A stretch of 64,000 nt of DNA from Bacteroidales bacterium (GTDB lineage Bacteria > Bacteroidota > Bacteroidia > Bacteroidales > VadinHA17), in contig JAXHLF010000029.1 in the NCBI GenBank assembly GCA_034522515.1, forward strand, positions 7,809 through 71,808, given 5' to 3'. The position numbers and the translations under genes are program-made. Below the pieces are notes generated by a model. The model made no database searches. It was not told the origin of the DNA and saw only the letters and a list, made by a program, of their open reading frames with translations. Every line of letters starts with the position of its first letter. Position 1 is the first letter of the stretch. Positions 3,151 through 64,000 of the stretch are shown piece by piece.

Positions 3151-3165
3151 ATGATCAGGTGCAGG

Positions 3166-29634: not shown

Positions 29635-29649
29635 TGAAAAAAATATATC

Positions 29650-32600
29650 ATGAACCGTCGTCTTCTCATTGCAACGGCTGTCATTGCCGTCATCGTCATG
29701 TCATGCGGAAAAGGGAAACAGCTTGCCGACACCGCCGCCATCTCCCCTGCCGTCACCATCATTGACAAGGGTTTCAGTAAGTTTATCTCAGCTTACACCA
29801 CGGGCACCGTGCAGGCGCTGGGAACGGTGCAGGTGGTCTTCACCCCGGAGTTTGCCGCCACCATAGACCGCACCCGCACACAGGGACTCTTCTCCTTCAA
29901 TCCGGCCATAAAGGGAACAACAGAGTGGGCCGATGACATCACGCTGATCTTCAAGCCCTCCAAACCCTTGTCGTCCGGCACGTCATTCCAGGGCACCCTC
30001 GACCTGAGCAAGCTGGGGCAGGTGGAGGAGCGCTTCCGCTTCTTCCCTCTTGTCTTCCGCACCCTTGAGAAGAACTTCACCGTCAACATCAACCCCGTCA
30101 CTGTTGACCTTCCCGACGGAAACACCTACACGCTGACCGGCACAGTGGTCACTTCCGACCATATTGACAAAGCCGAGGTCGAAAAGTACCTCACCGCCCG
30201 TGTCGGAAGGCGTGATGAGAAGATCATATGGGATCATGAAAACAATAACATCCACACCTTCACCATTGAAAAGATACGCAGAGCGAAGGAAGAGAATGAG
30301 CTCACGATTGCATGGAACGGCACCGCCTACGGTATTAAAACGAAGGGCGATCTCAGCGTCACCATCCCCGCCGAGGGAGTCTTCAGCGTCACCAACATAA
30401 AGATCAATACTGGCGACAGCAAGAGCATCGAGATCTTCTTCTCAGACCTGCTCGATGCAGGGAATGAGCTTGACGGGATGGTCACCACGGATCCCGTCCA
30501 TCCGCTCTCTGTCAGTGCCGAGGGCAACAAGCTGCTTGTCATCCCGGGCGAAAATATCGTCAGGGGTGGTGGAGGTGACAGTCGACGGCTCGCTCCGCAA
30601 CAGCCGCGGTCAGCGGCTCGGCGAGCCGGTAAAGAGAAGCATCAGCTTCAATCCTGTTGCGCCGGGTATACGGTCCGCAGGCCGCGGGGTCATCATGCCC
30701 TCGTCGGGCAGCCTGGTCTTCCCCTTCCTGGCGGCCAACCTAAGCGCCGTTGATCTCACCATTATCAAGATCTTTGAGAACAACCTGCCTTATTTCCTTC
30801 AGCAGAACAGCATGGGCGATGCGTATGACTACGAGAGCGCCATCAGGCAGTTCGGGAGGCCTGTCTGGCGCGGCCGCATCGACCTCGCCAGCGGCGCCGG
30901 CTTCGACCCGAATAAATACAACCTCTTCACCATCGACCTTGCCAATTATATCGAGCCCGAGCAGGGAATACTCTATCGCATTGAGCTGGGCATGCGCCCC
31001 TCATACTCGCTTTTCCCCTGCACCGGCGATCGCAAGCCCTCGAGGTACGAGGAGATGCTTGAGCTGGCCGACCTCGACCGGCCCTGGGAGGGTTCTGACG
31101 ACTACTATTCGCTCTCGGAAGAAGGTCTGTTCTGCGATTGTGCCTACAACTGGCGCGAGAACCAGAACCCCTGCAGCGATGCCTGTTGCGGTGCCGACAA
31201 GAAGCTGATCAGCAACATACTTGCCTCTGACCTTGGCATGGTAGCCAAGAGCGGCAGTGACAACAACCTCCGTATCTTCATCAGGGATCTGCGGACGGCA
31301 GAGCCCGTCGAGGCCGCCACTGTTGAGATCTACGACTACCAGATGCAGTCGATGGGGTCTGTCACCACCGACAAGTCAGGCATAGCCGCCCTCCCCTGCC
31401 CGCGAAAACCCTTCCTGGTGATAGCGCGAAAGGAGAAGAACCGCAACTATCTCTCGCTGCAGGACGGGACCGCCCTCTCAATGAGCTCCTTCGATGTGTC
31501 AGGTGAGTCGCCGCAGGATGGCATCAGGGCGTTCATCTTCACCGAACGCGATGTCAGGCGTCCGGGTGACACCATCTATGTGGGGCTGATAGTCCGCGAT
31601 GCGGGAAGCGGCCTCCCGGCCGGTCACCCCGTTCACTTCGAGCTTTACAACACTAAAGGACAGAGGATAGACGAACAGGTTACCACGCTGAACGACAAGG
31701 GTTTCCTAACATTTACATCTGTCACCTCCGGCGATGCCGAGACGGGTAACTACCGTGCCCAGGTACGTATCGGCGCAGCCACCTTCACGAAGATCATCAA
31801 GGTGGAGACAGTCAAACCGAACAGACTGAGGATTAAGCTTGACTTTGCTGATGCCGTTGCCGGAGGAGATAATAAGGCGATGCGCGGTGCGATGAAGGTC
31901 ACCTGGCTGAACGGCACCACGGCACGCGACATGAAGTCGACCGTAGATCTGCTGTTAAGACCCGTGAAGACCACCTTTGACAAGTACGGGCAGTATAACT
32001 TCGATGACCCTGCCACACAGTTCTGGTTTGACAGCCAGACGGTCTTCGAGGGCAATATCAACAGCTCGGGCGAGGCTGTGGTCACCTTCTCTCCTGACGA
32101 TGAGCTACAGGCTCCAGGGATGCTAAGCGCCATTTACACCACCAGGGTGTTCGAGAAGGGCGGCGACGCCAGCATAAACCAGACGGTTGTTCCCTATGCG
32201 CCTTACCCCGCGTTTGTGGGGATGAATATTCCCGCCCTGGGAGCTACTGGTCGTATCCTGTTTACCGACCGTCCCAACGAGGTCCGTCTGGTTACGGTAG
32301 ACAAGAACGGCAAGCCCGTCCGCAGCGAGGTGGAGATCAATGTCTACAAGCTCGACTACCGCTGGTGGTGGGAGTCGGATGACGAGTACCTGGGGTCATA
32401 TATCTCACGCGGACGCAACAATAACATTTTTACCGAAACGATCACCACCGCCGCCGGCGAGGGTAAGGTCTCTTTCAGTGTCGACAAGCAGCAGTGGGGG
32501 CGCTACCTTGTTCGTGCCACACTGCCCTCGGGACACTCCACCGGCATGATAGTGCTGGTCGACTGGCCGTGGGACTACGGTATGAAGCCCGGTGGCAACG

Positions 32601-35215
32601 ACGGCGCCAGCCTCCTGCAGCTGAACACCGAAAAAGGAGAGGTGCAGCGTGGGTGATGAGATAGTGCTTCACCTTCCCCGCACCGCGAGAACGGGCGCGC
32701 CGTCATCACGATTGAGAACAGCACGGGGCTTCTCGACATCAAGGAGGTGAACACGCAGGCAGGCAACACGGAGGTGAAGGTCACGGCCACGAAGGCCATG
32801 GCACCCCAACGCCTATCTCTATGTGACCATGCTGCAGCCGCACTCGCAGACGGTCAATGACGCGCCGATCAAGTTCTACGGAGTCATCCCGGTGATGGTT
32901 GAAGACCCCTCTTCCAAACTTACTCCCGGTGATAACCATGCCTGACCAGATAAGGTCAAGGCAGGAGGTTGAGATAAAGATTGAGGAGCAGAACAGGCAG
33001 GAGATGACATACACCCTTGCCGTGGTGGATGAGGGACTGCTTGACCTGACGGGATTCCGGACACCGGATCCGTGGAAGTGGTACTTCGTCAAGCATGCGC
33101 TGGGGGTGAAGACATGGGATCTGTATGACATTGTCTTCGGCGCCCTTGGAGGCAAGCTGGGTGAGGCCTTCGTTTTCGGCAGCGGAGGCGGCGGTGGACC
33201 AGAGCAGACAGGGGCACGGCGGTTTGAGCCGGTGGTCAGGGTTCATCGGACCCTGTACCCTGGCTCCTGGCAAGACCGGGACACATAAGATCAGGCTGCC
33301 GCAGTACACCGGAAGGGTCAGGGTTGACGTTCAACCCCGCCGGTCGCGGTCTGACTCAGGCTCCGCTGAAAAGAGCGTCGTGGTCTCCGACCCCGCTGAT
33401 GATACTGGCAACGGTCCCCCGCGTGCTGTCGCCTGGCGACCGGGTGGCGCTGCCGGTGACCGTTTTTGCACAGAAGAAGGAGATCAGCGAGGTTAATGTC
33501 ACTGCCACCGGCAATGAGATGATCTCATTCACACAGGCTGCCGGCTCCGTCAGGTTCACGGAGCCCGGCGACAAGGACCTGGAGCTCCTGTTCAATACGG
33601 CTCAGCAGCCGGGCAAGGCAGTCATTAATGTCAGGGCCGAAGGTGGCGGCGAGAGCGCATCGTACGACATGGAGGTACAGGTACGTACGCCGAATCCGCC
33701 CGAGCGTCGCGCCGAAACCAGTACAGCTTCTCCGGGCGAAAAATAAAAAAAGAGCTTCACACCATTCGGCATTGCAGGTACGGCATCGGCCCTCGTGGAG
33801 GTCTTCTAAGGTGCCCCTCAGTGAACCTGTCGCGGCGGCTCCGTTCGGCTCACCTCCTTCCCCCACGGTTGCACCGAGCAGATAACCTCGGCAGCCTTCC
33901 CGCAGATCTATCTCCCTGACCTGCTCGGATCGAGTCTTCCCGATCCTGCCCTTGTGCGCAACAACGTGCAGGAGGCGCTGCGCAGCATCGCCTCGCGTCA
34001 GATCTCATCAGGGGCTCTCACACTGTGGCCTGGCAGCTCATATCCCGACGACTGGGTGACATCGTATGCCGGCCACTTCGCCATTGAGGCACAGAAGGCA
34101 GGCTACACGCTTCCGGCGGGGTTCATGAGCAAATGGACAGCTTATCAGCGTGCCACCGCCTCAGCATGGAGGTACCAGCCGCAGTACCGTTACACTGCCA
34201 ATGACCAGGCCTACAGGCTCTTCACCATGGCTCTCGCCGGCGCTCCCGACAAGGGGGCCGGTGAACCGCATGCGCGAGGTGACCGACCTGCCCTCGCTGG
34301 CACGGTGGTTCCTCGCGGCACCCCTGCGCCACCACTGGCCGGCCCGAGGTGGCTCAGAGCCTAGCACCGACGTCAGGAACCTGAAGAGCGAGGAAGAGTT
34401 TAGGTGGTACTGCGGCAGCGCCCTAAGGACCAGTCAATCATCCTCTATACGCTGACAACCAGTAGGCAACACCGCAGAGGCACTCGACCTGCTTAAGGAG
34501 GTGGCCGCCTCGCTAGCCGTGACAGCTGGTACAGCACCGAGAACAAGGCATGGGGACTGTTTGCATATGAACTTCAGCAAGAAGATGAAAGGCGATAACG
34601 GGCGAGCCGGATAAAGGTCTACTTGAGCTTGCAACGGGAAGAAGGAGAAGCTGACCGCGGATGAGGGCGGCATCATGGAGAAACCTGGCACCGGTGGCAT
34701 CGAACAGGCTGGTAGTTCAACGAGAGCGACAAGCCGGTGTTCGTAATTTTTTACCGAGCAGGGCGTGCCAGTGAGTGCCGACATGACCGTGACCGAGGAA
34801 TAACCTGACGATGAAGGTCGACTATATGGATATGGAGCAGAAGCCCGTGGATGTGTCATCACTGCCAGCGGGGACAAGCTTCATGATGCTGGTGAGTGTC
34901 ACCAACACCACCTTCCGGCAGATCAGGAACCTGGCGCTGACGAAGATGGTGCCCTCGGGATGGGAGATACAGAACACACGACTGTTTGAGGCCGGGTTGC
35001 CTGTGAAGGAGGGGACGTATGACTACCGCGACTTCCGTGATGACAGGGTCTATACCTATTTCAGCCTTACTCCTGGTGAGACAAAGAAGTTCTTCATCAT
35101 ACTCACAGCGTCATACCGCGGCACCTACTCGATGCCTGCAGTAGTATGCGAGGCGATGTATGATGAGGGTGTCGCGGCGCACAGTCAGGGATTTGCTGTG
35201 GAAGTCAGGAAGTAG
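29650..35215 (+). pseudogene. Alpha-2-macroglobulin-family lipoprotein (YfhM-like, thioester type), many frame breaks
   Basis: Lipobox MNRRLLIATAVIAVIVMSCGK. Pieces are 29650..30753, 30455..32656, 32899..33288, 33324..33746, 33954..34364 and 34811..35215, plus short bridging frames. The thioester motif GCTEQ is encoded at 33870-33881 (tgc acc gag cag). Confidence 0.85.
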
Positions 35216-35224: not shown

Positions 35225-35297
35225 GGATAAAGGTAAAAGGATAAAGGTTAAAGGATAAAGGTTAAAGGTTAAAGGTATAAAGGTATAAAGGATAAAG
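35225..35297. repeat. Period-7 tandem repeat (aaaggtt/aaaggat/aaaggta units), same type as 3071-3150
   Basis: ggataaaggtaaaaggataaaggttaaaggataaaggttaaaggttaaaggtataaaggtataaaggataaag, between the A2M stop and pbpC. Confidence 0.85.
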
Positions 35298-40230: not shown

Positions 40231-40602
40231 CAGATCATATTAAGCATTCTCAAAGAAATACCCGGAGACATCTTCCGATCACCCAGATGCATGGCGGCAT
40301 GTGTACAGGGTCAAATTTATGTCAGAATAAATCCGCATTCAAATTTATTTATCAACGGTATCCCAATATTTAAACTCCTAAGGGGTATAAATTGTTTGAT
40401 CAACACACCTTTTTCTGCCATACTTAATGCTCTGCGCGCATTGGATTCCCCGAACACCGAAGGTCTTTAACAACCAACTGATCAACGATGCTTTTTAATG
40501 TCTTGCATATTCAATCTATTTCCAGGTGACAACGCTGATAATGAAGCAACAAAAGAGGGAAGTGCCGGGCCGGCGGTGAGGATGTCCACAACCTGCCGGC
40601 CT

Positions 40603-40718
40603 CCGCCGGCAGCTGCGTATATGTCCATGCACGTCAACGCCGATGCGTACGGCATCCGCCAGCAGCTGCGTATATGCCCATGCACGTTGACGCCGATGCG
40701 TACCGGCATCCGCCGGCG
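40603..40718. repeat. ~54-bp tandem repeat x2.2 just upstream of the sensor-kinase start
   Basis: ccgcc(g/a)gcagctgcgtatatg(t/c)ccatgcacgt(c/t)(a/g)acgccgatgcgtac(c)ggcat is repeated at 40603-40655 and 40656-40709, with a partial third unit. Confidence 0.85.
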
Positions 40719-47875: not shown

Positions 47876-49010
47876 TCAAATCCGGAAATATAGGCCGGGG
47901 ACTCGGTAGAATTTATCCGTCTCCCCGGCAGCAAAGCCTGTGAACAGAGCATATACCAGTCCGGGTTTTGCGTTCAGCATCCTGTTCAGCGCACCCATCC
48001 GCCTGTTTGTCCTCAGAGTATCGTATAGACTGGAGTGATCATCAAGCCATGTGAGAGCGGTGTGGTAGCCCTCCTTCGCGCAGACCGCCTCGAACAGGTC
48101 GGGGAGAAGATCTTCGCTGCCCTTGCGGCAGTATATGGCATTAAGAATGATATACCTGAACTCTTCGGGCCTGAACAGCCTCCTGAACATGGGTGTGCGG
48201 GGCAGCACCTTCATCATCAGCCACCCCCCCACTCCGGGCACATTGACCACCCTGTACTGTGCCGGTATGGCTCTAACGCCTGCGACGATCTCCCCGTTTT
48301 TCCGAAGAACATAATACTTATGATCGTAAAACGAAAACTCATCCGTATAAAAGCAATAATCGCGATACTGTTCTTCAAGGAGGCGTGCCATTGCAGGCTC
48401 CTCCTCCGGCTTCAGGCGTGCGACAGAGGGATCAGGCTTCGGGTTGAACCTGCTGAAGGCTACAGTAAGGAATGAGCGTATATATTCGTATCCCGACTGG
48501 TTTACCATGTTCCTGGAACGCTCATTCTGGCTCTCAACATATGCATACATGACATGCGGCGTATCCTTCTCATATTCCTCTCCTGTAGCATGTTGCGGAT
48601 CCCTTATCAAAGAGAGGATCTTCTGCTTAAAGCTGTCTCCGGCCTGTGAGAGTTTCTCTCTCCTGCTGTCCGGAGTCCTCCCGGTCTGAAAGGCGCTCTG
48701 AATGGCAAGATAACGCAGATAGGAAGAGTCCACTGTGCCTCACTCCCCTGTTCAGTGTACTGCGCCGGCACACGCCGATTACTCCCTTCAGGCTGCTCTT
48801 CTTGTAGAGGGCCATGAAGGTGAGTCCGTCACCATAGGACTTAATCCTCTCCTCAGTGTTCAGCATGGAGTAGCGCATCCCGCCCTCGGACCCGAGAACA
48901 GTTTCCTTAAGCAGGGAAACTATCTCCTCGTCGGGTTTCCTGACCCTTCTTACCTCCAGTTTCTTATAGTCGATTATGTTTTTCCTGCTCCATAGTCTCC
49001 TGCGGTTCAT
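47876..49010 (-). CDS. Hypothetical protein (~375 aa, one frame break near ~48700); function unknown
   Basis: ORFs 48627..49010 ([23 protein letters not shown]...) and 47876..48733. The start ATG (49010) overlaps the ispD stop as ATGA. Confidence 0.6.
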
Positions 49011-49995
49011 TGTTTGAGCATCCTGACCAGCGTGTGTGCCACGGCCAGGTCCTCAGGTGTGGTTATCTTAATGTTCTCCCTGTTGCCGTGTGTGAGGTGT
49101 ATCTTCACTCCGGCTGCCTCCGCCACGGTGGCGTCATCAGTGAATGAGGGATCGAAGGGGCGGTCATATGCATTCATTATCAGGCTGCTCAGGAACACCT
49201 GCGGGTGTCTGTATCAGTCTGACCTCATTCCTCGGCAGCGGCCTGCTCTCATCACCTTCAATGATCCTGACCGAATCAGAAGGCTCGATAAATGGTATGG
49301 CCGTGCCAAACTCCTCAGCATCAGCATAGCAACGCCATATTGTGTCATGGCTCACCAGGGGCCTGACGCCGTCATGCACGGCCACCAGCGGTTCTCCGGT
49401 CACATGACCCGGTGGGTCCGCAGGCGACCATGTATCAGCATGCGCAGGCGCCCTGACCTCATCGTGCGCAGGGGCTCTGACCTCATCTTGCTCAGGCAAT
49501 CTTGTGTCCGGTGCCGCCTCGCCTGCCGGCGCCTCGCCTGCCGTCCGCCTCCTTCCCCTCTCTTTTTCTTCTTCCTCTTTCTCCCCTCTCCCTCCCTCTC
49601 TCATGGGGAGCAGGCGCCCATGAAATCACCCCCTCCTCATATCTAGCTGCATCATGCGTCAGGCGCCCTGACCTCATCATGCGCAGCATCCCGGCCCGCC
49701 TGTCTGACCAGCTCCAGTCCTGCCCTGACCGAGTGGAATCTCTCCTCACCGCCGGCAGCCACAGTGTGGCCTATGCCGAATGAGTACTCCTTGACCAGGC
49801 TTCTCCCAGAGTGAATGATGTTCCGAAGGAAGAACAACGATTATCTCAATGGTGCTGTCGAAGGAGTGAAACCGTTCAAGGGTATGCATCAGCAGGAGCT
49901 TCCCCCTCAAGCAGGAGGAACTGCTTGGGGAGGGCCGATTGCATTCTCCGCCCGCTGCCACCGGCAACTATGATGCAATACTTTTTCACTCCCAT
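49007..49995 (-). pseudogene. ispD: 2-C-methyl-D-erythritol 4-phosphate cytidylyltransferase, interrupted by a ~300-bp repeat/polypurine insertion plus frame breaks
   Basis: The ATG at 49995 gives MGVKKYCIIVAGGSGRRMQSALPKQFLLLEG. Further pieces read ...LLLMHTLERFHSFDSTIEIIVVLPSEHHSLW..., ...GHTVAAGGEERFHSVRAGLELV, then [49399-49705 insertion], then ...PLVAVHDGVRPLVSHDTI...LIQTP... and 49007..49198 (...[33 protein letters not shown]). Confidence 0.8.
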
Positions 49996-50174: not shown

Positions 50175-51828
50175 CTATTGCTTCATATAGAGATAACGCT
50201 TGATGCTCTTCTTGGGCGTCTTGGCAAACTCCTCAGGATGGACCCTGAATTTAGTCACTGCCATGTAATCAGGCAGGCGGTTGTTCACATCCTTGCGGAT
50301 CTCATCGAGCGCCGCAGCAAGTCCCTCCTCACCTATGCCGGCAGTCCTGAGAGCCTCATAATCAGGATATACAAGGCCCACTAGCTTATCAGCTTCGGAG
50401 ATGACGATGGCCTCGGTTACATATTTGTGGTTGTTTATCAGCGATTCTATCTCTTCAGGATAGATATTCTTGCCCGAGGCGCCCAGCAGCATATCCTTGC
50501 TTCTTCCCTTGATATAAATATATCCGTCCTTGTCTATGACACCGAGGTCACCCGTATGCATCCAGCCATCCTCGTCAATCACATCCTTCGTAGCCTTCTC
50601 GTTCTTGTAGTAGCCAAGCATTACGTTGTCGCCACGGAGTATGATCTCCCCTACTATCTTTTCCGGGTCAGGCGAGTCTATCTTTACCTCAAGGGTATCA
50701 ACAGCCTTACCGCAGGAGGCGATCCTGGCTGTCTTCCACCCGTCATAGGCTATCAGCGGACCGCATTCGGTCATGCCGTATCCTATGGAGAAGCGCAGTC
50801 CGATCTTTTTGAAGAACTTCTCGGCGTCGGCATTGAATGCGGCCCCGCCGATGACCAGCTCCTTGAAGCGACCGCCGAAGCTGATTTCCAGCTTCTCACG
50901 AATTTTCCCGTAAAAAGAATCTTATTGATCCCCGGGACCTTCAGCATCGCCTTCATTGCAGGTTTGGAGATGACAGGAACCATTTTCTTCTTGTAAACCT
51001 TCTCTATCACAAGCGGAACAGAGAGGATCAGCCTGGGCCTTATCTCCTGAAAGGCCTGCAGGAGAATCTGCGGTGAGGGAGTCTTGGTGAGTATTGTTAT
51101 ATGACACCCGTAGGTAAAGGGGAAGAGAAACTCAAAAGCACATCCGTAGGTGTGTGCCAGCGGGAGGAAAGAGACGACGGGGTCACCCGGCTCCAGGGGC
51201 ATGTTATTCTGTGCATACCTGATGTTTGCTGCCAGGCTCCTGTGGGGAACCATCACACCTTTTGAGAAACCTGTGGTACCGGAGGTGTAACTGATAACGG
51301 CAAGCTGCTCATTGTCAACTCCGGAGAATTTGATGTCAGCCGGACCAAACTCCGGAAAGGTTTTACGGAAGTGGTCGTCAAGGTTCTTGTATATCTCAGG
51401 GAATTTATCTGACCGGCTCATGATCACTCAAAGGTATCAAGGCTGATGACACCTTCGATCTCTTTGATCTTCTCCGGGTCAAGCAGCTCCCAGATCTTGT
51501 CATCAATGAAAAGCATCTTTGAGTCGGAGTGGTTGATGATGTTGTGAAGGTCATCAGGCTTGAAGTCCGGCAGTATGGGAACAATGCACTGCACCATAGG
51601 TCACCACGGCAAGATACATGGCGCACCAGTTGGCAGAGTTCCTGCCCAGCAGGGCAATTTTATCGCCCTCAACAATTCCATATTCCCGAAAGACAATATG
51701 GTGTTTGACCATTACTTCAGCTATCTCTTTGTAGGTATAGCCCTTTTCACGGTAATTGGAAAGCGCCTCGATTTCCCAGTTCTTTCTTATGCTCTCTCAC
51801 ATAGGTGATAAATCGTTCCTTGATCATG
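50175..51828 (-). pseudogene. AMP-dependent synthetase/ligase (long-chain acyl-CoA ligase-like), frame breaks
   Basis: Pieces are 51405..51626 plus an upstream start MIKERFITYVREHKKE at ~51828, 50783..51427 (AMP-binding motif YTSGTTGFSKGVMVPHRSL) and 50175..50774 (...WMHTGDLGVIDKDGYIYIKGRSKDM...). Confidence 0.8.
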
Positions 51829-51888: not shown

Positions 51889-52095
51889 ACTGTAAAGCAA
51901 AAGCACACGTGAAGAGTTGCTGTTCATTCATCAGTCGTATGGCAGGTCACAGCCAGTAAAGCAAAAGCACCGGCTAAGTGTTGTCTCTTAATTCATCAAT
52001 CGCATGGCCGGTCACAGCCCGCAAAGCGAAAGCACCGGCTAAGTGTTGTCTGTTCTTTCATCAATCGCATGGCCGGTCACAGTCTGTAGAGCAAA
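51889..52095. repeat. ~65-bp tandem repeat x3 plus a partial unit that overlaps the 3' end and stop of the membrane-protein gene
   Basis: Units are at 51889-51948, 51949-52013 and 52014-52078 (cacagcc(a/c)g(t/c)aaagc(a/g)aaagcaccggctaagtgttgtct...catcaatcgcatggccggt). The unit start recurs at 52079 (cacagtctgtagagcaaaagcaccg), which is the last ~8 codons plus the stop. Confidence 0.85.
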
Positions 52096-52469
52096 AGCAC
52101 CGTCAGGGCCATGATGAGATTAACCGCCGTAAAGACCATGTTATACCGTACTCTTTTAGCGCTGAAGCGGGTAATCTTTCTCGAGAATATGGCTGCTGTC
52201 GGAACAAACAGCACCACCAGGAATATGAAGAATTCCGGTCCGTCGAACACCTGGCTCACCCCTCCTCCCTGAGGCTGGCGAAATAGATTACGATCAGCAT
52301 CACCATGAGATACGAGGAGATAGCTGCCTTTAAGTGCCAGCGTGGAGAGGGGCCGGGAGTGATGAAGCTTGTGGGGTTTAAGGTAAGCGTATGCTATTGA
52401 GAACACAATCAGCGCGAAGAGGGCCCCGATAATATAACTCATCATCTCCGGAAAATTGTAGTTGCTCAT
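52077..52469 (-). CDS. Small integral membrane protein, unknown function
   Basis: 130-aa intact ORF with about three hydrophobic segments (MMSYIIGALFALIVFSIAYAYL..., FFIFLVVLFVPTAAIF..., VFTAVNLIMALTVLLLY). Confidence 0.55.
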   Translation of the reverse strand: MSNYNFPEMMSYIIGALFALIVFSIAYAYLKPHKLHHSRPLSTLALKGSYLLVSHGDADRNLFRQPQGGGVSQVFDGPEFFIFLVVLFVPTAAIFSRKITRFSAKRVRYNMVFTAVNLIMALTVLLLYRL

Positions 52470-55368: not shown

Positions 55369-56580
55369 TTATTTTAATACCATTATCTTTTTAAGCTTCA
55401 CAAAATCAGGGAGGTCGCCTGTGAGTGGCTTCATATACCTCATGAAGGCGTCAGAGACGAAGTTGCCGGCGGCGTTGAAGTACTCTGCGGGCATGGGTCT
55501 GGCGGCGATGGCCACCTCGCTCAGCGGCACCTTTCCGAATGTCACCTCATAGGGGTCATCGGAGGTCCTGTCTATGCTTACCATGAATCCCGACTCTCCC
55601 CTCTCGGCCAGTCGTACAGCCTCGACTTAGCACCTGTAGGCCTCATCGAGTTCAAGCGGCAGCGACCTGACATAGTCGCTCATTATCAACGACTCCGTTA
55701 TCTGGAAAAACTCACCCCTGACGCCCGACTCCGACGAGATCATGCGGTGGAGTGTCAGCCCTACGCTGGCACCGCCCATGGCACCGAACTCGGTGTTGCT
55801 GAATGTGTCCTTCACCACCGAGGCGCTGACCGGGGAGCCGTCGGCATACCTTATACCCTCGCCGCAGACCACCGAGACCCAGCCGTATCTGGTGATGCAG
55901 TGTTCAACGTCCGCGAGGAACTGTTCCTTCACGAAGTGATGCTCGGGAGCGTATATCAGGTGGGGCGCATCATCCTCGTCACGCCTGGCAACGGCCGTTG
56001 CGGCGGCGAGCCATCCGGCATCACGGCCGATGGTCTGGTAGACAACAAACTGATCGACCTTCTTCATGTCGCGGGCCAGCATTCACCCTGCATCACGTTG
56101 AGAATATTGGACCATGCCGCCGATGCAAATCCCGCGGTGTGGTCAGTGCCAAAGAGGTCATTGTCAACCGTTTTCGGGATGCCGACACCCGTAGAGCTGC
56201 GTAGCCCCTGTCACGGCAATAGGACTCCACCCTGTGGATGGTATCCATCGTGTCATTCCCTCCTATAAGGAAGAAGTACCTCTTATATCATACTTTTCAG
56301 TATGGAAAGGATTCGGGGAAAATCCTCATCCTTGAGCTTGTGGCGTAATTGAGCCGAGGGCCGATGAGGGTGTACGGCGGAGGCACCGTATGATGTCGTC
56401 AGGTTGTGACCAGAGGTCAAAGAGCCACTCGTTCATGAATCCCTCGATGCCGTAGTTCATGCCATAGACACCTGAAATTATTCCCGAGGCCCGGGCGGCG
56501 GTGACCACTCCTGCAAGGCTTGAGTTTATAACTGATGTCGGACCGCCTGACTGGCCGATCACTGCATTGCCCTTCATCAT
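55369..56580 (-). pseudogene. 6-phosphofructokinase family (PPi/ATP-dependent), frame breaks
   Basis: Pieces are 56326..56580 (MMKGNAVIGQSGGPTSVINSSLAGVV), 55627..56082 (...VYQTIGRDAGWLAAATA...VVCGEGI...) and 55369..55584. Confidence 0.75.
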
Positions 56581-56643
56581 ATCTGTGCTATTTGAGAATT
56601 AGGTTTAAGAGTTGCTATTTTTATTTGTGACTGCGTCGCCAAA

Positions 56644-57363
56644 CTATGGATTTACCATGTGGGTTTCTGGTTGTGCCATCCGACTGGCGGAGCGGCGATT
56701 TATGAGCTTAAATGAACTTCCAGATTCCAAATTATTCGGACGGTGATAATCGGGCTTTTCAGTGCCTACCGGTTTCCAGGTCACAATCTGCGGGTTGCTC
56801 AGCTTGTCGCCGCACTTGCAGAATTTGGCCTTGAAGCTCCTGCCGGCCAGGGTGTCAATCTTCTGGCGGAAGAAAGTTTTAAGCGGGATGGCCACTGCCA
56901 GAGACCACCTTATGTCGCCGCTGATCTCTCTGAACAGATTCCCCGCCCATTGTGGTGAGGCGGCGGATGCCATCAACCACAGAGGTCTCTGCTCTTACGC
57001 TGTCATGTCCTTGGTGGCCCCATCCCATCAGCGCCGTGCCTATCGGGTTAAACTCGAAATTATAATAGATGCCGTCATCAGAGGGTGCGACGAAGAACTC
57101 GACGCACCAGTCTTTCGCATACCATCTCGTTGGTGCGGCTATCTCTCCGCCTTGACATCGGCCTTCCTCACGTAATATTTGATATAGATCTCATCGTTGT
57201 CGCCCAGGCAATATTGAACCTCACCTCAGGCTTGTAGGGAATGATTCCCAGTTAACCGTCTCTATAAGATGGCCCTCTCCAAGCTCATCAAGTCTGGCGG
57301 TGACCTCTTCCATGGAGGACTGGTCTTTTCAGTGTTCAGTCTTCTGACCTCTATGGTTCGCAT
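56644..57363 (-). pseudogene. Carbohydrate-binding family 9-like (DOMON-like) protein, frame breaks
   Basis: The ATG at 57363 gives MRTIEVRRLNTEK. Shifted frames read ...ETVNWESFPYKPEV..., ...DWCVEFFVAPSDDGIYYNFEFNPIGTALMGWG..., and ORF 56644..56976 (...FKAKFCKCGDKLSNPQIVTWKPVGTEKPDYHRP). The family call is from memory of CBM9_2-type motifs. Confidence 0.5.
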
Positions 57364-57400
57364 CTCTTCACTTTTAGTTAGTTCCGCTTCGAGAACAATC

Positions 57401-57570
57401 TCAGCTTTGACCCGCATCCTTCCGGATCAGTGCCGTCAATGCCAGTCTGTCTGTCAGCCTCGCGGTTGTCAGCTTTGACCCGCATCCTTCCGGAACAGTG
57501 CCGTCAATGCCAGCCTGTTTGTCAGCCCCGCTGTTGTCAGCTTTGACCCGCATCCTTCCAGATCAGTGCC
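57401..57570. repeat. 68-bp tandem repeat: two downstream copies plus the original that includes the last codons and stop of ROK kinase 2
   Basis: tcagctttgacccgcatccttcc(g/a)ga(t/a)cagtgccg... begins at 57401, 57469 and 57537. The copy at 57537 starts with the gene stop codon. Confidence 0.85.
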
Positions 57571-58495
57571 GAGGCGCCGAGTATCGCTGCGCGCGCTTCC
57601 GGCAGTCCTGACGGCATCACGGTGAATGTACCCCGGAATATTGGCTGAACAAGTTCGTCAGCATATCCTACCGGTTCAAAGACGGCATCACCTGCCTTTG
57701 TCAGTCCTCCGAACAGGAATATTGTTTCCGGGCTGGAGAAGATCACGGCGTTGGCTCTGCCCGAGTGCGATCATACGTGCTGTCTGGTCGAGGGCCTCGA
57801 TTGCGATGATGTCGCCGGCCGCCGCGGCCTCGGCCACTCTTCGCGAGGTTATCTCACTGCTCTTCAGGTCACGCAGTATGCTCTCCTCGCGGAGGTCGCT
57901 GAGCAGGGCGAGGACAGTGCGCACCAGCCCTGTGGCAGAGGCGTAGGTCTCCAGGCATCCGCGGCGGCCGCATCCGCAGATCCTGCCTCCCTCGGCAACG
58001 GTCACGCGACCAAGCTCACCGGCAAAACCGGTATGGCCATACACCACCTCACCGTCAACGACGATCCCGCTGCCGTCCCTATGCCCAGGGCCAGGACTTC
58101 AAAACGCTCTATGCCCTTTGCCGCTCCAAAGATCATCTCACCAAGGGCCGCGGCATTGGCATTGTTGGTTATCCTGGTCTTTAGTCCCGTTCGCCTCTCG
58201 GTCAGCATTACCAGCGGTATTATTCCCTTCCAACGGAGGTTCGGTGCTTACGTCAACGGTTCCCTTGTTGAAGTTGGCGTTGGGGCGCTCCAATGCTGAT
58301 GCCGGTAAGCGTCAGGTCATCATGGCCGGCAATCATCTCCTTCAGCTTAAGGTCAAGGGCTGTGACAAAGTCATCAGCAAAGGCATAATCGGGCGTGGAG
58401 AGCCTTCCCTCGGCATGGATCTCACCATCGCGGTCGACAAAACCGATGATTGTGTTTGTTCCTCCAATGTCTACTCCGGCTACTACTTCTTTCAT
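57537..58495 (-). pseudogene. ROK-family sugar kinase 2, frame breaks
   Basis: Pieces are 58253..58495 (MKEVVAGVDIGGTNTIIGFVD), 58002..58208 (NNANAAALGE), 57688..58047 (GHTGFAGELG...ICGCGRRGCLETYASATG) and 57537..57746. Confidence 0.8.
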
Positions 58496-58510
58496 ATTCT
58501 GCTCTCAGTT

Positions 58511-59907
58511 TAAACTTCTTTCAGCAGTTCTGGCCGGATCCTGTAGGCCTCAGCACCAGCTCCCCGAACAGCGTGTTGGGCCCAGGCAAACCACTTCCTG
58601 GTGTACTTTGTCGGGTCATTCCTTCATGACCAACTCATGCATGAAGCCTGGCTGCATGGGTGTTCCCTAATATCCTAGTGATGATATGATATCGTTATCG
58701 TTACTGGTGGTGAGAGCCCGTATGGCTTAGCTATCGGCCACCGCGGTTAGCCGGTGCTAAAAATTCGTACCCTACCGCTATATCCGGAGAAAGAAAAATT
58801 GCTTCTGCTCATACAAAGCTTCTGTACGGAGAGATAAAGCGGATCACTGCGGTCAATGGTTCCCAGGTAGGGCAGGCCCAGCAGGCTCGGCACGTTGGCA
58901 TCATCCATGAAATTGTAATTGTAGTAGCCGTCGGTCTCATAGGGGATGATCTCCCCGTGCTGCGGATGCAGTGCCCTGGCGTAAGTGGCGAGAGCAGCGT
59001 CAACCTCATCAGCCAGCCCGGCGGCGTCTCTGGCCAGCACCTCATCACGGGTAACGGATGTGGCAATCTCCGCCATCTGCCTGAGCGACTTCACCGCAAA
59101 AACAAACCTTCGAGGGAATGAGGAAAGGCCATATAGTTGCATCATCCGACGCCGGAAGATGGAGACGATCAGTCCGACAGGATCGACCGGGTTGCCAAGC
59201 CGCCGCCGGCTACAGTATCGGTCTGCCATCCTGTTACCCTCTGGAATCCCCCTTTTTTTTTTGGGTGCATGACTCGTCAAACACCGAGGTGTCACCGGTA
59301 GCCTTCCAGTAACCGTGAGCCAGCCTAAAAAAATCCCACAGAGAGTCTATCTCCCACTTGCGCTCATGAAGCTCGGGCTTCATGTCGGTGAGGTCATTCA
59401 TCCACTCTACTCTGTCCGGGACCGTCATTGAAGGCATTGGCATAATGCCCCAGAATGAATGCACTTTACCTGTCTGTTGATGACCCCGGCTATCAGATCC
59501 TTAAGGTTTGTGTTACGGCAGAAAGTGCGGCACAGACGGCCATACCTGTGCGGTGGAATCGCGGAGCCACATGGCGTTGATGTCACCCGTGATGACGAAT
59601 GTGTCGGGCCTGTTATCCCTGACGGAGAAGTTAACGGGTAGTGTCAAGCGTGTTCGGGAAGCAGTTGCCAAAGAGCCATGCCAGTTGGCTGTCGCCGACA
59701 GATGACTCTATCTCCCTGATGGTCTCCTCCATCACCTTGCTGCGGAACCTGCGCAACCTGGGCGCGGGGCCTGTTGGAAGTCCACCTGGCTGCCCTGCCT
59801 GTTGAGAATGCCGGAAAAGCCGCGGATGCCGGGAATGCATTAACGCCGGCAGAGATGGCGGCACCTGCCACCGCGGTGTTTCTGATGAACCTGCGACGCG
59901 TTGACAT
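58511..59907 (-). pseudogene. GH125-family (DUF1237) exo-alpha-1,6-mannosidase-like protein with Tat-type signal, frame breaks
   Basis: 59644..59907 (MSTRRRFIRNTAVAGAAISAGVNAF...) and 59631..59864 (...LAWLFGNCFPNTLDTT). Further pieces are 59234..59464 and 58747..59295 (...IIPYETDGYYNYNFMDDANVPSLLGLPYLG...). A shifted C-terminus ends ...NTLFGELVL...ELLKEV* at 58511. Confidence 0.65.
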
Positions 59908-59951
59908 CGGATTATCTCTTTATTGCCGGTTTATTCCTGATTGAAACATCC

Positions 59952-61719
59952 TTACTGTACATTAACCCAGATCCCAGTCCTGGTTCCAGCGCCCCAGTTG
60001 ATCTTCACCTCCAGCTCGCCGGGAAAACACGAAACAGGCTCGGGGATTTCTGAGAAGGCTGAAGTCGCCTGTCGTCCCATACCATATCTTGAGTCGAGGT
60101 CATAGATCGCCTTAAGCCTGTAGCGTCCTTTGTCAAGAAGCGGGAAGGTGATATCGCCGGGGCTCCTGACATATTCCTCCCTGACGACCTTTTCCTTTTC
60201 GGCAAGCAGCTGCACGATTACATTTCCCGCATAGCCCGACAGTTTTGCCCTGATACTTCCGTAATCTTCTTCGGTGGCGACGGCAAACCTGTAATTCGTT
60301 GAATCGGTTACATTTCCATAGATATCCCTGAAGGAGCCTCCCATACAGACGAGGGAATATGTACCGCCGGGTATCAGCGGAGCCTTCATCATCAAATTTC
60401 TGCAGTGGTGCTGTCACTGATAAATTCAAAGTTCAACTCCGTTCTGACCGTATCGATGGTCTGAATGAGCGTTATAAGTGAAGTGTCAGGGTCAGCCAGC
60501 GGAACTGCTGACCTGAAGTATGGTTCAGCTCCGGGTCTTATCTTTCCGATAAGATTTGTGGTCAGCGTCAGCGCCGGGGCTCTGCCGGCACCTCCCCGCG
60601 GAGTAGCAGGCTTTGTATACCGGAGGTTGAGCGTGTCGGTTCTGGCAATGACGGTGCCGGTGCTGTCAGTGAAGGGATAGGTAAGCAAAGCCTCTATCAG
60701 ATCACGTCCGTAAACCTCAGGGTCGGTGATCCAGATCATGAAGGTGTCACGGGCGGCATTGTTTTCCATGTACCATGATTGCGGCGGAGGATCGGTAAAA
60801 GAATTGAAACCTAACCTGTGTCTGTTGGCAGCGCCAGCCCGAAGCCCACTGACCAGGCGCTCCTCCTGTCGTAGAACCCGAGGTACTGCTTCCATGGCTC
60901 CTGCTGGAAGGCATATAACCCAATTGATGCCGAAAAGGAAGATATTCGGTTTGGTTGTCTCAGTGGCAGTGGCAGGTTTATACTTTATCGAGTTAGGCAC
61001 GACGGAACAGTATCTCCTCCGGGGTGATATGGATGAGCGAATCACAGAAGGCAAATATCTCGTCATCAATATCGTACAGTCTGTTCCCGTTAAGGTCCTG
61101 AACTGCAAAGAGCCTGTAATGGCCGGGCTTAATGTTGTTTATCATGAAACCGCCTGACGGGTCGGGACGCGAAATATAAGCCGGAAGGAGTTTACGCGGT
61201 GCGGTATCAGAGAGGTTGGAATACATCATGACCATGACATCTTCCACTGTCTCCAGGCTGGCGGCGTCGTAAACACATTGCCCGTAAGAGAGAGGAAGTC
61301 GAGCACGGTACCGGTAGAAAAGACATACTGGTAGTTCGGAATGGGATTGTTCTCGTCATTGTCGCGTATGGCGTCCTGAAAGTAAAAGGTGTAGGTGGTG
61401 CGGTCTGCCAGCTCCTCATCCCATGTCACCAGCAGGCTTTTTCCCTTTAGTCTGATATTCCGTTTTGTCGCCAGGGGAGGCGATACCATGAACTTCTCGG
61501 TTATCCGGTCAAGCACGACGAACTCGTCAAATGTGATTGCGAACTCGATTATCCGTAAGAAGGACTGTACCATTCTCCGGCTGGCTCTTAAGGCTTACCC
61601 GGAGGGTCGGTGTCTTTAGGTCCGCCTGATGGCGAGCTTATCTTGGGGCATGACAATATAAACAGCATGATCAAGGCCGTTGCGCCCAGCCTGCCTGATA
61701 TGTAACTCCCGCGATCCAC
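59952..61719 (-). pseudogene. Ig-like (Big_5-type) domain lipoprotein, frame breaks
   Basis: The GTG at 61719 is inferred from the better-preserved mirror copy (...RLGATALIMLFILSCAK). Pieces are 61226..61573 (FAITFDEFVVLDRITEKFMVSPPL...YTFYFQDAIRDN), 60993..61247, 60392..61108 and 59952..60395. Confidence 0.65.
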
Positions 61720-61818
61720 CGCTTACAAACTTACATCAAATTTTGTTAAGTAAATAAGATGGGCGGCATGCGCAACCGATACTTTATACCGGATAAGTTT
61801 TCCTGTCACTTTTTTATT

Positions 61819-61826
61819 TAATTTTG
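61819..61826 (+). promoter_or_regulatory. -7 promoter box TAATTTTG upstream of lgt
   Basis: Matches TAnnTTTG; 20 nt upstream of the ATG at 61846. Confidence 0.4.
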
Positions 61827-61845
61827 TGTTCCATACACAATACCT

Positions 61846-62235
61846 ATGGAGCTTCAGATAATTCCGTGAAATGTTGATCCGGAGATCTTCCGGATCGGCA
61901 ACTTTGCCGTGAGATGGTACGGCCTCCTCTTCGCATCCGGATTTGTATTCGGATATTACATCATGAGGAACATCTTCAAAAATGAGGGAATGGGCGATGA
62001 GACCCTGGACAGGCTCACAGTCTATGTTGCCATTGGAACAATTGTCGGCGCCAAGCTGCGTCACTGCCTGTTCTATGAGCTGGCCTATTACCTTGCTAAC
62101 CCGTTGGAGATACTAAAGGTATGGCATGGTGGATTAGCCAGCCACGGGACAGCCATAAGGATCCCGCTGGCACTGTGGCTTTTTTCCAGGAAAGAGAAAA
62201 AACCGTTCATATGGGCCATTGACCGCGTAGTGAGC
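61846..62235 (+). CDS. lgt: Prolipoprotein diacylglyceryl transferase, 5' part only (sequence ends at the adapter junction)
   Basis: MELQIIP(*)NVDPEIFRIGNFAVRWYGLLFASGFVFGYYI...LKVWHGGLASHG... (ORF 61909..62253). The reading frame runs straight into adapter sequence at ~62236. Confidence 0.8.
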
Positions 62236-62238
62236 AAA

Positions 62239-62290
62239 GCAATACGTAACTGAACGAAGAGATCGAACAGTTACGTATTTTCTTGCTCAC
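62239..62290. other. Oxford Nanopore ligation-adapter remnants (bottom strand, then 3' part of the top strand) at the axis of the inverted duplication
   Basis: 62239-62259 reads GCAATACGTAACTGAACGAAG, which is 21 of the 22 nt of the ONT Y-adapter bottom strand GCAATACGTAACTGAACGAAGT. 62262-62287 (atcgaacagttacgtattttcttgct) is an error-containing ...TTCGTTCAGTTACGTATTGCT, the top-strand 3' end. Confidence 0.9.
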
Positions 62291-62673
62291 TACGCGGTCA
62301 ATGGCCCAGATGAATGGCTTAGCTCTTTCCTGGAAAAAAGCCACAGTGCCAGTGGGATACCTATGGCTGCCCCGTGGCTGGCCAATCCACCATGCCATAC
62401 CTTCAGTATCTCCAACGGGTTAGCAAGGTAATAGGCCGGCTCATAGAACAGGCAGTGACCCAGCCTGGCGCCGACAATTGTTCCAATGGCAACATATACC
62501 GTGAGCCTGTCCAGGGTCTCATCGCCCAGCCCCTCATTTTTGAAGATGTTCCTCAGGATGTAATATCCGAATACAAATCCGGATGCGAAGAGGAGGCCGT
62601 ACCATCTCACGGCAAAGTTGCCGATCCGGAAGATCTCCGGATCAACATTCCACGGAATTACCTGAAGCTCCAT
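62290..62673 (-). CDS. lgt: Artefactual reverse-complement copy of the lgt 5' part
   Basis: ORF MELQVIPWNVDPEIFRIGNFAVRWYGLLFASGFVFGYYI... mirrors 61846-62235 with scattered substitutions and indels. Confidence 0.7.
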   Translation of the reverse strand: MELQVIPWNVDPEIFRIGNFAVRWYGLLFASGFVFGYYILRNIFKNEGLGDETLDRLTVYVAIGTIVGARLGHCLFYEPAYYLANPLEILKVWHGGLASHGAAIGIPLALWLFSRKELSHSSGPLTA

Positions 62674-62799
62674 AGGTATTGTGTATGGAATACAAAATTA
62701 ATTAAAAAAGTCACAGGGAAGCTTATCCGGTATAAAGTATGGGTTGCGCATGCCGCCCATCTTATTTACTTAACAAAATTTGATGTAAGTTTGTAAGCG

Positions 62800-64000
62800 G
62801 TGGATCGCGGGAGTTACATATCAGGCAGGCTGGGCGCAACGGCCCTGATCATGCTGTTTATATTGTCATGTGCCAAGATAAGCTCGCCATCAGGCGGACC
62901 TAAAGACACCGACCCTCCGGTAGTCCTTAAGAGCCAGCCGGAGAATGGTACGGTCCTTTTTACAGATAATGAGTTCGCAATCACATTTGACGAGTTCGTC
63001 GTGCTTGACCGGATAACCGAGAAGTTCATGGTATCGCCTCCCCTTGCCAGAAAACCGGATATCAGACTGAAGGGAAAAAGCCTGCCGGTGACATGGGATG
63101 AGGAGCTGGCAGACAGTACCACCTATACCTTTTACTTTCAGGACGCCATACGCGACAATAACGAGAACAATCCCATTCCGAACTACCAGTATGTCTTTTC
63201 TACCGGTACCGTGCTCGACTCCCTCTCTCTTACGGGCAATGTGTTTGACGCCGCCAGCCTCGAGACAGTGGAGGATGTCATGGTCATGATGTATTCCAAT
63301 CTCTCTGATACTGCACCGCGTAAACTCCTTCCGGCATATATTTCGCGTCCCAACCCGTCAGGCGGTTTCATGATAAACAACATCAAGCCCGGTCATTACA
63401 GGCTCTTTGCAGTTAAGGACCTTAACGGGAACAGACTGTACGATCTTGATGACGAGATATTTGCCTTCTGTGATTCGCTCATCCATATCACCCCGGAGGA
63501 GTACTATTCCGTCGTGCCTGACTCGATAAAGTATAAACCTGCCACTGCCACTGAGACAACCAAACCGGATATCTTCCTTTTCGGCATCCATCGGTTATAT
63601 GCCTTCCAGCAGGAGCCATGGAAGCAGTACCTCAGGTTCTCCGACAGGAGGAGCGCCTGGTCAGTGGGCTTCGGGCTGGCGCTGCCAACAGACACAGGTC
63701 AGGTTTCAATCTCTTTTACCGATGCTCCGCCGCAATCATGGTACATGGAAAACAATGCCGCCCGTGACACCTTCATGATCTGGATCACTGACCCTGAGGT
63801 TTACGGACGTGATCTGATAGAGGCTCTGCTTACCTATCCCTTCACTGACAGCACCGGCACCGTCATTGCCAGAACCGACACGCTCAACCTCCGGTATACA
63901 AAGCCTGCTACTCCGCGGGGAGGTGCCGGCAGAGCCCCGGCGCTGACGCTGACCACAAATCTTATCGGAAAGATAAGACCCGGAGCTGAACCATACTTCA
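62800..64000 (+). CDS. Artefactual reverse-complement copy of the Ig-like lipoprotein gene (runs to the window end)
   Basis: The GTG at 62800 gives VDRGSYISGRLGATALIMLFILSCAKISSPSGGPKDTDPPVVLKSQPENGTVLFTDNEFAITFDEFVVLD.... It mirrors 61719 down to 60514. Confidence 0.7.
   Translation, partial: MDRGSYISGRLGATALIMLFILSCAKISSPSGGPKDTDPPVVLKSQPENGTVLFTDNEFAITFDEFVVLDRITEKFMVSPPLARKPDIRLKGKSLPVTWDEELADSTTYTFYFQDAIRDNNENNPIPNYQYVFSTGTVLDSLSLTGNVFDAASLETVEDVMVMMYSNLSDTAPRKLLPAYISRPNPSGGFMINNIKPGHYRLFAVKDLNGNRLYDLDDEIFAFCDSLIHITPEEYYSVVPDSIKYKPATATETTKPDIFLFGIHRLYAFQQEPWKQYLRFSDRRSAWSVGFGLALPTDTGQVSISFTDAPPQSWYMENNAARDTFMIWITDPEVYGRDLIEALLTYPFTDSTGTVIARTDTLNLRYTKPATPRGGAGRAPALTLTTNLIGKIRPGAEPYF

Follow-up and report, generated by a model that had tools for sequence, protein, structure and literature searches.

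An apparent palindrome at the end of a Bacteroidales contig is very probably an unsplit nanopore read retained by the assembler

The window analysed here (the whole stretch of Bacteroidales DNA, 64,000 nt) ends in a long palindrome, in which a lipoprotein gene and the 5' part of lgt are present twice in opposite orientations and lgt stops at the axis. The question raised by this locus is whether such an arrangement exists in the genome or was made on the way to the assembly. We propose that the last 3.5 kb of the window are a technical nanopore fold-back retained by the assembler and not a biological palindrome, and we assign to this reading a probability of about 95%.

The inverted repeat and the genes in its arms

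The initial annotation had described the segments 60514-62235 and 62290-64000 as reverse complements of each other, and this was borne out by three kinds of comparison, which place the arms at 60514-62233/38 and 62283/87-64000 with approximately 95.5% identity. The repeat search of the window returned collinear inverted blocks (60514-62196 against 62323-64000) that are 95-99% complementary, together with a 58-nt inverted block that spans the axis. Gapped global alignment of 60514-62238 with the reverse complement of 62286-64000 gave 1646 matches, 68 substitutions and 12 indel columns (95.4% identity), and BLAST aligned the arms in the inverted orientation over 1725 nt at 95.6% identity. The arm length of 1.7 kb is a lower bound, as the repeat reaches the final base of the window, 64000. 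No second long inverted repeat was found in the 64-kb window, and an Rfam scan of the window gave no matches. The arms and their genes are as follows:

60514-62233, + strand: left (proximal) arm, collinear with the rest of the contig, error-rich, with the lipoprotein gene, the divergent intergenic region and the lgt 5' part
within 60514-62233, - strand: left copy of the Big_5 Ig-like lipoprotein gene, start GTG at 61719, about two thirds of the gene
61846-62233, + strand: left copy of the lgt 5' part, ATG at 61846, LGT (PF01790) profile positions 12-117 of 240
62287-64000, + strand: right (distal) arm, reverse complement of the left arm, very probably an artefactual fold-back, running past the window end; the more accurate copy
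62290-62673, - strand: right copy of the lgt 5' part, LGT (PF01790) profile positions 1-104 of 240
62800-64000, + strand: right copy of the Big_5 (PF13205) Ig-like lipoprotein gene, start GTG at 62800, with a Big_5 profile match

The gene content is common to both arms, as had been claimed. The N-terminal part of LGT is encoded in each of them, and the match to PF01790 ends at profile position about 104-117 of 240 in both. The left copy of lgt contains an in-frame TGA where the homologues (P0001-P0014) have Trp, and it stops at the fragment end; the right copy, compared with the homologues, retains the conserved residues, apart from a frameshift within the ~40 nt nearest the axis. The right copy of the lipoprotein gene continues after its start for 399 further codons without a stop or a frameshift until it is cut by the window end, and tblastn aligns it in one frame over 411 aa; full-length homologues have about 599 aa, and the best homologue, P0121, is 92% identical to the right copy. 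The left copy requires at least 6 frame changes and matches the protein of the right copy in several frames. The peptides quoted earlier to illustrate the divergence of the copies were found as well, ARLGHCLFYEPAYY in the right arm and AKLRHCLFYELAYY in the left one.

Hairpin ends and long inverted repeats are known from replicons of bacteria and phages, and the end of the window could be taken for a genuine inverted duplication or palindrome (a hairpin telomere, or the product of replication-template switching) in which adapter-like bases occur by chance. However, such a structure would halve the essential gene lgt at LGT profile position about 110 of 240, and the sequence of the axis also argues against it.

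Adapter sequence at the axis

Between the arms there is an adapter-derived spacer of about 45-50 nt, and the axis is wholly accounted for by the bottom and top strands of the Y-adapter, with the bottom strand followed by an 8-nt garble and then by a part of the top strand:

62234-62238, + strand: GCAAA, ambiguous, either the end of the genomic insert with a dA tail or the first adapter bases called with a stutter
62239-62260, + strand: ONT ligation-adapter bottom strand, GCAATACGTAACTGAACGAAGT, 21/22 match
62263-62279, + strand: 3' part of the ONT adapter top strand (adapter positions 9-25 of 28), TCGAACAGTTACGTATT against TCGTTCAGTTACGTATT, 15/17 match

The bottom strand had been proposed for 62239-62259, where it is indeed present as an exact 21-mer, with 1 mismatch over the 22 nt that end at 62260. 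The adapter sequence agrees with the Porechop_ABI preprint, which gives AATGTACTTCGTTCAGTTACGTATTGCT for read starts and GCAATACGTAACTGAACGAAGT for read ends. None of 100 shuffles produced a match at ≤3 mismatches, and the calculated chance expectation of a 21/22 match to the synthetic 22-mer is ~5e-7 per 64 kb on both strands. The damaged end of the top strand, also noted earlier, is represented by the 15/17 local match, with a miscalled leader before it and a garbled GCT after it (62280-62286); the full 28-nt top strand has no match at ≤3 mismatches. The score of the local alignment, 13, was reached by none of 5000 random 40-nt windows of the contig. These values are hard to reconcile with a biological palindrome, as is the position of the first match exactly at the axis, with a match to the other, complementary strand of the adapter right beside it.

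The same adapter-adapter junction was found at 15 further places in public contigs (MAG, metagenome and IMG/VR), with the layout of a complete bottom strand, a garble and CAGTTACGTATT (GCT), preceded by an A. An A directly 5' of the bottom adapter (GCAAT) is thus found at 16/16 junctions, i.e. in the window and at the 15 public ones, which fits dA-tailing. In the window, homologues predict Ile-Val after GTAGTG (DRVVIVVAL), and Ser-Lys is read at 62234-62238. The order of complete bottom strand, garble and 3' top strand corresponds to the + orientation of the 15 public junctions; since the two adapter strands are complementary to each other, a + read direction deduced from this layout is suggestive only.

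Most of the other public junctions join unrelated flanks (L005, L007-L010, L012, L014-L017). In one IMG/VR contig, a 3.56-kb segment with 100% identity to the right end of phage lambda has such a junction on either side. This segment matches ONT's DCS control DNA. The recurrence of the motif around lambda DNA in another contig is a further argument against a biological origin of the axis. In an unrelated Bryobacterales MAG (L004) the contig folds back too, with inverted arms of 2.1 kb that are 90% identical and a junction located 2161 nt from the contig end.

The fold-back could in principle have been formed physically before sequencing, by snap-back ligation during end repair, as an amplification palindrome, or by ligation of adapter-bearing ends. 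A library-preparation origin is favoured for many ONT fold-backs (Heinz et al., PMC12870357), and whole-genome amplification is known to make palindromic long reads (Pacasus preprint, bioRxiv 10.1101/173872). However, in hairpin and amplification chimeras genomic DNA is fused to genomic DNA with nothing between, and library-preparation fold-backs are typically devoid of an adapter at the axis, where the window has an adapter pair. Moreover, the top-strand 5' leader is garbled or missing at 16/16 junctions, which is typical of the start of a read. We therefore regard a physical fold-back as very unlikely, and a failed split of one read as the probable cause.

A common breakpoint and the true continuation of lgt

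From 58510 to 62233 the window is collinear with a related Bacteroidales contig, L001. Positions 62233 and 62287 both map to L001:6389, and the homology resumes at 62287 running backwards; the precision of this breakpoint is about ±5 nt, the reference L001 being only about 70-73% identical. The initial annotation had named a comparison with related genomes as a check. In three relatives (L001, L002 and L003) the arrangement of Big_5 and lgt is the same, lgt continues uninterrupted in 3/3, and the palindrome is present in none, with no inverted repeat of ≥40 nt found in any of the three. In L001, lgt includes LGT profile positions 169-231, and its 3' part is followed by the genes for TetR, IF-2B (MtnA-like), a class II aldolase and a hydrolase. 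Neither the lgt 3' part nor these four L001 genes have a tblastn match in the window. By megablast, none of the 12 loci L001-L012 proved to be the window's own contig, and six ORFs of the window, taken with starts that may deviate from the recorded gene calls, gave no exact match at the protein level.

The view that the truncation of lgt is unreal is therefore supported by the adapter pair at the axis of the palindrome, by the common breakpoint, by the lgt gene that continues in the collinear relatives and by the missing downstream genes, all of which are observed directly, as well as by the dA base; the sequence from the adapter onward does not represent genome topology. Three relatives that have no inverted repeat and are collinear past the axis leave little room for a genuine palindrome, which we consider so improbable as to be effectively refuted.

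The common breakpoint bears also on a concatenation chimera of two molecules, in which the second would by chance have come from this very locus and from its other strand. Most public adapter-adapter junctions do have unrelated flanks, as expected for two molecules. However, in the window the flanks are 95.6% identical and inverted, unlike those of L005, L007-L010, L012 and L014-L017, which argues against a chimera of unrelated molecules. Moreover, both arms end within about 1-5 nt of each other (L001:6389), a coincidence that is vanishingly unlikely for randomly sheared fragments, and a chimera of two molecules is accordingly most improbable.

The unsplit template/complement chimera proposed in the initial annotation is supported by the adapter pair at the axis, the common breakpoint and the palindrome-free relatives, and its origin may be envisaged as follows. 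An adapter-ligated double-stranded Bacteroidales fragment would have had one end inside lgt. The first strand would have been read 5' to 3' to the fragment end and then out via the ligated bottom-strand adapter, and the complementary strand of the same duplex, with its own top-strand adapter, would have entered the same pore straight after. If the signals remained unsplit, one read would have resulted, composed of strand 1, an A, the bottom adapter, the miscalled leader, the 3' part of the top adapter and strand 2. With the middle adapters left in before assembly, this chimeric read, presumably the single one to support the junction, could have been used to extend the contig back over itself, and the outcome would be an apparent palindrome with lgt "truncated" at its axis. 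Later consensus or polishing may then have acted unequally on the arms, leaving the proximal one raw-like and the distal one clean.

Adapters in the middle of reads are the target of Porechop middle-adapter detection, of duplex-tools split_on_adapter and of Dorado read splitting. Splitting at middle adapters is standard preprocessing (PMC13323052), and the concatenation chimeras with mid-read adapters have a junction identical to that of the window, with CAGTTACGTATT (GCT) after a short garble; what sets the window and L004 apart is that a single molecule supplies both flanks, as its two strands. Fold-back reads constitute about 0.55-0.6% of ONT genomic reads (Heinz, Meyerson & Li 2026, PMC12870357), and an earlier hypothesis on such reads is attributed there, by citation, to Soneson et al. 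They resemble the present case in that a locus is read and then read again on the other strand, the breakpoint coinciding with the end of the fragment (PMC12870357). On the other hand, fewer than half of the fold-back/chimeric artefact reads had >11 bp between the halves (PMC12870357), whereas the window retains an adapter pair of 45-50 nt, which makes it the un-split-read subtype, and the artefact is here found in an assembled contig, not just in a read. The palindromes from whole-genome amplification (Pacasus, bioRxiv 10.1101/173872) are likewise artificial palindromic long reads that corrupt assemblies, but they form physically, during amplification, and lack sequencing adapters at the axis.

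With hairpin telomeres and inverted duplications the window shares only the appearance of the dot-plot; its axis contains synthetic adapter DNA, and the structure lacks a counterpart in the relatives and disrupts an essential gene. ONT Duplex relies on the complement following the template through the same pore. The same succession of strands is used in ONT 2D and 1D2 (PMC12870357). In all these procedures it is deliberate and the pair is collapsed to a consensus, whereas in the window it was written head-to-tail as one strand; furthermore, 2D employs a hairpin adapter, and here a Y-adapter pair is found.

Unequal arms and the use of the contig

Two earlier statements held only in part. The "raw-read quality" ascribed to this part of the contig applies to the left arm and to roughly 57.5-62.2 kb, but not to the right arm with its uninterrupted 399-codon frame. 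The right arm also sides with the homologues at about 18/22 discordant residues. Frameshifts occur across the whole window (Pfam checks show frame breaks throughout), and according to the tiling of ORFs scored by codon usage the coding pieces become shorter from about 48 kb on, without a sharp step. The idea that the whole 62-kb left part is the overhang of a single raw read was considered and rejected, since open frames of 963, 751, 703 and 667 codons are incompatible with the arm indel rate of about 4 per kb. The homopolymer context gave no explanation of the indels between the arms.

Among the coding substitutions that distinguish the arms, 25/57 are synonymous, compared to 15.6 ± 3.3 expected (P about 0.005), an excess not expected from read error alone on a single molecule, so that random read errors do not account for all of the differences. 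In their present form in the contig, the arms are accordingly unlikely to be just the two raw halves of one read, and at least one of them has probably been rewritten by consensus or polishing. The excess would suit two molecules from different strains, but it is explained equally well by polishing; under the single-molecule reading that we prefer, it requires an extra consensus or polishing step with reads from a slightly different strain.

On a naive model the proximal arm should be polished and the distal overhang raw, and the opposite is observed. In both fold-back contig ends (n=2, the window and the unrelated L004) the distal arm, which according to the adapter layout is the strand read second, keeps longer intact reading frames than the proximal one. 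That this inequality is systematic rather than accidental is a tentative suggestion, which we consider rather unlikely. If it proves reproducible, it could possibly be caused by winner-takes-all placement of reads during the polishing of inverted duplications, which would starve one copy, or by a real difference of accuracy between the first and the second strand of unsplit pairs; it would then provide a simple in-silico flag for fold-back ends, and trimming of the "overhang" would throw away the better copy.

This qualifies the advice to discard everything to the right of ~62236, which is correct inasmuch as that sequence is not genome topology, but the right arm is the better copy and should first be used to correct the left one. 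The remedy is to repair the left arm from the right arm and then to cut at about 62233-62238. If the artefact is left in, the assembly shows a palindrome and a contig end that are false, lgt looks truncated when it is not, and the lipoprotein gene appears twice; the region may then pass for a structural variant, for a hairpin telomere or for a pseudogene. The presence of the junction motif in public MAG, metagenome and IMG/VR contigs makes a scan for it useful for database hygiene.

There is no biological novelty in the palindrome, and the value of the finding lies in quality control only. It reveals that the reads were assembled without prior splitting at middle adapters. It also shows the contig to be a long-read assembly rich in indels, in which gene calls across the window consequently need frameshift-aware handling.

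The inverted repeat and the adapter DNA at its axis

The window ends in an inverted repeat, in which a repeat search paired 60514-62196 with 62323-64000 in six collinear inverted blocks of 95-99% complementarity and found a 58-nt inverted block straddling the axis. When 60514-62238 was aligned with gaps against the reverse complement of 62286-64000, 1646 positions matched, 68 were substituted and 12 columns held indels (95.4% identity), and BLAST gave 95.6% over 1725 nt, in agreement with the initial annotation, which had described the arms as reverse complements with common gene content. The length of the repeat is a lower bound, as it extends to the final base of the window; the repeat search found no second comparable inverted repeat across the 64 kb.

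Features of the window end
60514-62233, left (proximal) arm: 5' part of lgt (Pfam LGT, profile ending at about position 104-117 of 240) and, divergent from it, a Big_5 Ig-like lipoprotein gene
62239-62260, plus strand: ONT adapter bottom strand
62263-62279, plus strand: part of the ONT adapter top strand
62287-64000, right (distal) arm: fold-back copy with the same two genes

According to the Porechop_ABI preprint, from which the sequences were taken, the ligation adapter is AATGTACTTCGTTCAGTTACGTATTGCT at read starts (top strand) and GCAATACGTAACTGAACGAAGT at read ends (bottom strand). The bottom strand agrees with 62239-62260 at 21 of 22 positions, the sole match in the window at no more than three mismatches, and shuffled sequences contained none at this threshold. 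No near-full-length match to the top strand was found in the window; local alignment of 62263-62279 (TCGAACAGTTACGTATT) with top-strand TCGTTCAGTTACGTATT gave 15/17 identities, a score reached by 0/5000 random 40-nt windows. The plus-strand order is insert, A, bottom strand, an 8-nt garble, the 3' part of the top strand, a garbled GCT and the opposite-strand insert, as expected where the read end of one strand runs directly into the read start of another. The earlier claim of a bottom strand followed by a damaged top strand is thus borne out, with both adapter sequences confirmed in the literature.

The fragment end and the course of lgt in relatives

The related contig L001 (ENA ERZ25039461 contig_114624, 342.7 kb) is collinear with window 58510-62233 at ~70-73% nucleotide identity, and the right arm restarts at 62287 from the identical L001 base, 6389, and then runs backwards. 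An ordinary chimera of two independently sheared molecules would not account for this, the chief objection being that such molecules would not end at one base; each arm is one strand of the same fragment. Homologous Lgt proteins have DRVVIVVAL at the point where the window has DRVVSK and then adapter. The probable fragment end is therefore at about 62232-62233, with GCAAA (62234-62238) possibly a stuttered call of the adapter start.

In L001, L002 (an NCBI metagenome-assembly contig) and L003 (a JGI metagenome contig), the Big_5 lipoprotein gene is divergent from lgt (3/3), lgt carries on past the axis position (3/3), and no inverted repeat of at least 40 nt was found in the loci (0/3). The second lgt piece of L001 covers LGT profile positions 169-231, and downstream lie TetR-family, IF-2B-family, aldolase and hydrolase genes; tblastn matched neither the 3' part of lgt nor these L001 genes anywhere in the window. 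As had been proposed, lgt is not genuinely truncated, since it continues in relatives free of the inverted repeat; the contig turns back on itself at a fragment end.

Fold-backs make up ~0.55-0.6% of ONT genomic reads, and un-split reads were earlier proposed as one cause of them (PMC12870357). Heinz et al. favoured a library-preparation origin for many fold-backs without intervening sequence (PMC12870357), whereas here the adapter pair is kept between the arms, and it is this retention that places the window fold-back in the un-split subtype. The 2D and 1D2 chemistries used such template-then-complement passage on purpose (PMC12870357). A single read would lie behind the junction, and the assembler would have extended the contig using that chimeric read. 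Splitting of reads at middle adapters is routine preprocessing (Porechop, duplex-tools split_on_adapter, Dorado >=0.5; PMC13323052). Given the adapter pair, the breakpoint shared at L001 base 6389 and the relatives without an inverted repeat, the original reading as an unsplit template/complement chimera, and not a biological palindrome, is supported.

Unequal arms and the quality of the contig

Among the coding substitutions between the arms (60514-64000), 25/57 are synonymous and 9/57 fall at second codon positions, against 15.6 +/- 3.3 (P ~0.005) and 19 (P ~0.002) expected if errors were random with an equal transition bias. Noise alone does not explain the arm differences; this synonymous excess and second-position deficit suggest that real strain polymorphism, not read error, accounts for some of the 4% divergence, and at least one arm seems to carry changes written in during consensus or polishing, from reads of a slightly different strain.

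In the right arm the lipoprotein gene (copy at 62800-64000) has a single frame that stays open for 399 codons (62803-63999), which aligns in a single frame with the L003 protein over 411 residues and is 92% identical to its closest homologue, P0121. The left copy (59900-61719) has at least 6 frame changes (about 6-10 breaks) and two premature stops. In a comparison with four homologues at the 22 non-synonymous lipoprotein differences, read by eye, the right-arm residue is the one shared at ~18 sites and the left-arm residue at 3, and the invariant W, GARLGHCLFYEPAYY and GAAIG of lgt are kept in the right arm and lost in the left. The right arm is the poorer copy only within the final ~40 nt of lgt adjoining the axis. 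The distal arm is the better one, the reverse of the prediction for a raw overhang on a polished body. Winner-takes-all read placement between the copies, which would need a distal arm reaching well past the window, and a true quality difference between read halves are candidate causes.

Split genes were recognized by consecutive ORF pieces matching consecutive parts of one Pfam family.

Genes with broken frames
16611-17751 (about 16.6-17.8 kb): AAA_14 ATPase, frame breaks far from the window end
30401-35212: alpha-2-macroglobulin (A2M), frame breaks far from the window end
49010-49840: IspD, split across frames
50178-51796: AMP-binding, split across frames
55630-56598: PFK, split across frames
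57540-58504: ROK kinase, 4 pieces
58750-59864: GH125, at least 4 pieces

Frame breaks span 1-62200, most densely about 57.5-62.2 kb. Because genes are split window-wide and yet frames of 600-960 codons are intact elsewhere, the contig is a long-read assembly rich in indels and uneven in quality, worst about 57.5-62.2 kb. The "raw-read quality" of the initial annotation fits that region and the left arm; it does not fit the right arm, which is not raw.

Four tandem duplications (units of 46-68 nt, 2-3.3 copies, 85-97% matches) may be of biological origin or may mark places where pieces of raw read were stitched together.

Tandem duplications
29543-29635: overlaps the 3' end of an ORF ending at 29582
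40596-40714
51892-52102: ~190 extra nt relative to L001
57401-57571: 68-nt repeat, overlaps the 3' end of the ROK gene

Relative to L001 2652-2663, window 57358-58510 holds a 1.15-kb insertion with a second, frameshifted ROK-family kinase gene and the 68-nt repeat, which may be genuine gene content or a mis-join. Two intergenic arrays 32 kb apart (3070-3149 and 35225-35297) share a 7/14-nt unit, GGATAAA / GGATAAAGGTTAAA, in ~10-11 copies; neither matches Rfam.

Adapter junctions in public contigs and repair of the window

Public collections were scanned for GCAATACGTAACTGAACGAAG, a 0-30 nt spacer and CAGTTACGTATT, with 1 match in 185,579 GTDB species genomes, 8 in metagenome contigs and 6 on 4 contigs of IMG/VR. 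The first, L004 (JAXHKT010000059.1, contig_1406_polypolish, a Bryobacterales MAG and GTDB representative), is an adapter-centred fold-back in an unrelated organism (locus 465-4820, junction 2619-2671), with 2.1-kb, 90% identical carA/carB arms; its junction is 2161 nt from the contig end. Its distal carA/carB frames are longer than the proximal ones, the same tendency as in the window; with n=2 the distal-arm advantage is an anecdote. The 14 metagenome and IMG/VR junctions have unrelated flanks (11), direct-repeat flanks (1) or lie at the stored-locus end (2).

In the IMG/VR "viral genome" L014 (IMGVR_UViG_3300049043_000188, 120.7 kb; locus 1292-4935), two junctions bracket a 3.56-kb segment 100% identical to the phage lambda right end, which matches ONT DCS control DNA; a third junction elsewhere makes this contig a concatenation chimera of several reads. 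L014 has the flank AGTGAACCGTAAGCA, ahead of the adapter, in common with the end of metagenome contig SCPP01001428.1 (L006). Five contigs of ENA assembly ERZ1370068 (L005, L007, L009, L010, L012) carry internal adapter-adapter junctions between unrelated sequences, which suggests assembly from reads without middle-adapter splitting.

At 16/16 junctions (the window and 15 public) an A precedes GCAAT, consistent with a dA tail, and the bottom strand is complete or near-complete, followed by a top strand that has its 5' part garbled or lacks it, which fits the start of a read. The comparison establishes the adapter-adapter motif as a technical signature with two subtypes, concatenation chimeras and fold-backs.

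In practice, 60514-62233 should be repaired using the right arm before about 62234 onward is removed (homology to L001 stops at 62233, close to the ~62236 first suggested), together with any mirror beyond the window, and gene calls throughout the window should be treated as frameshift-prone. The window end shows a technical artefact of a known kind, devoid of biological content.
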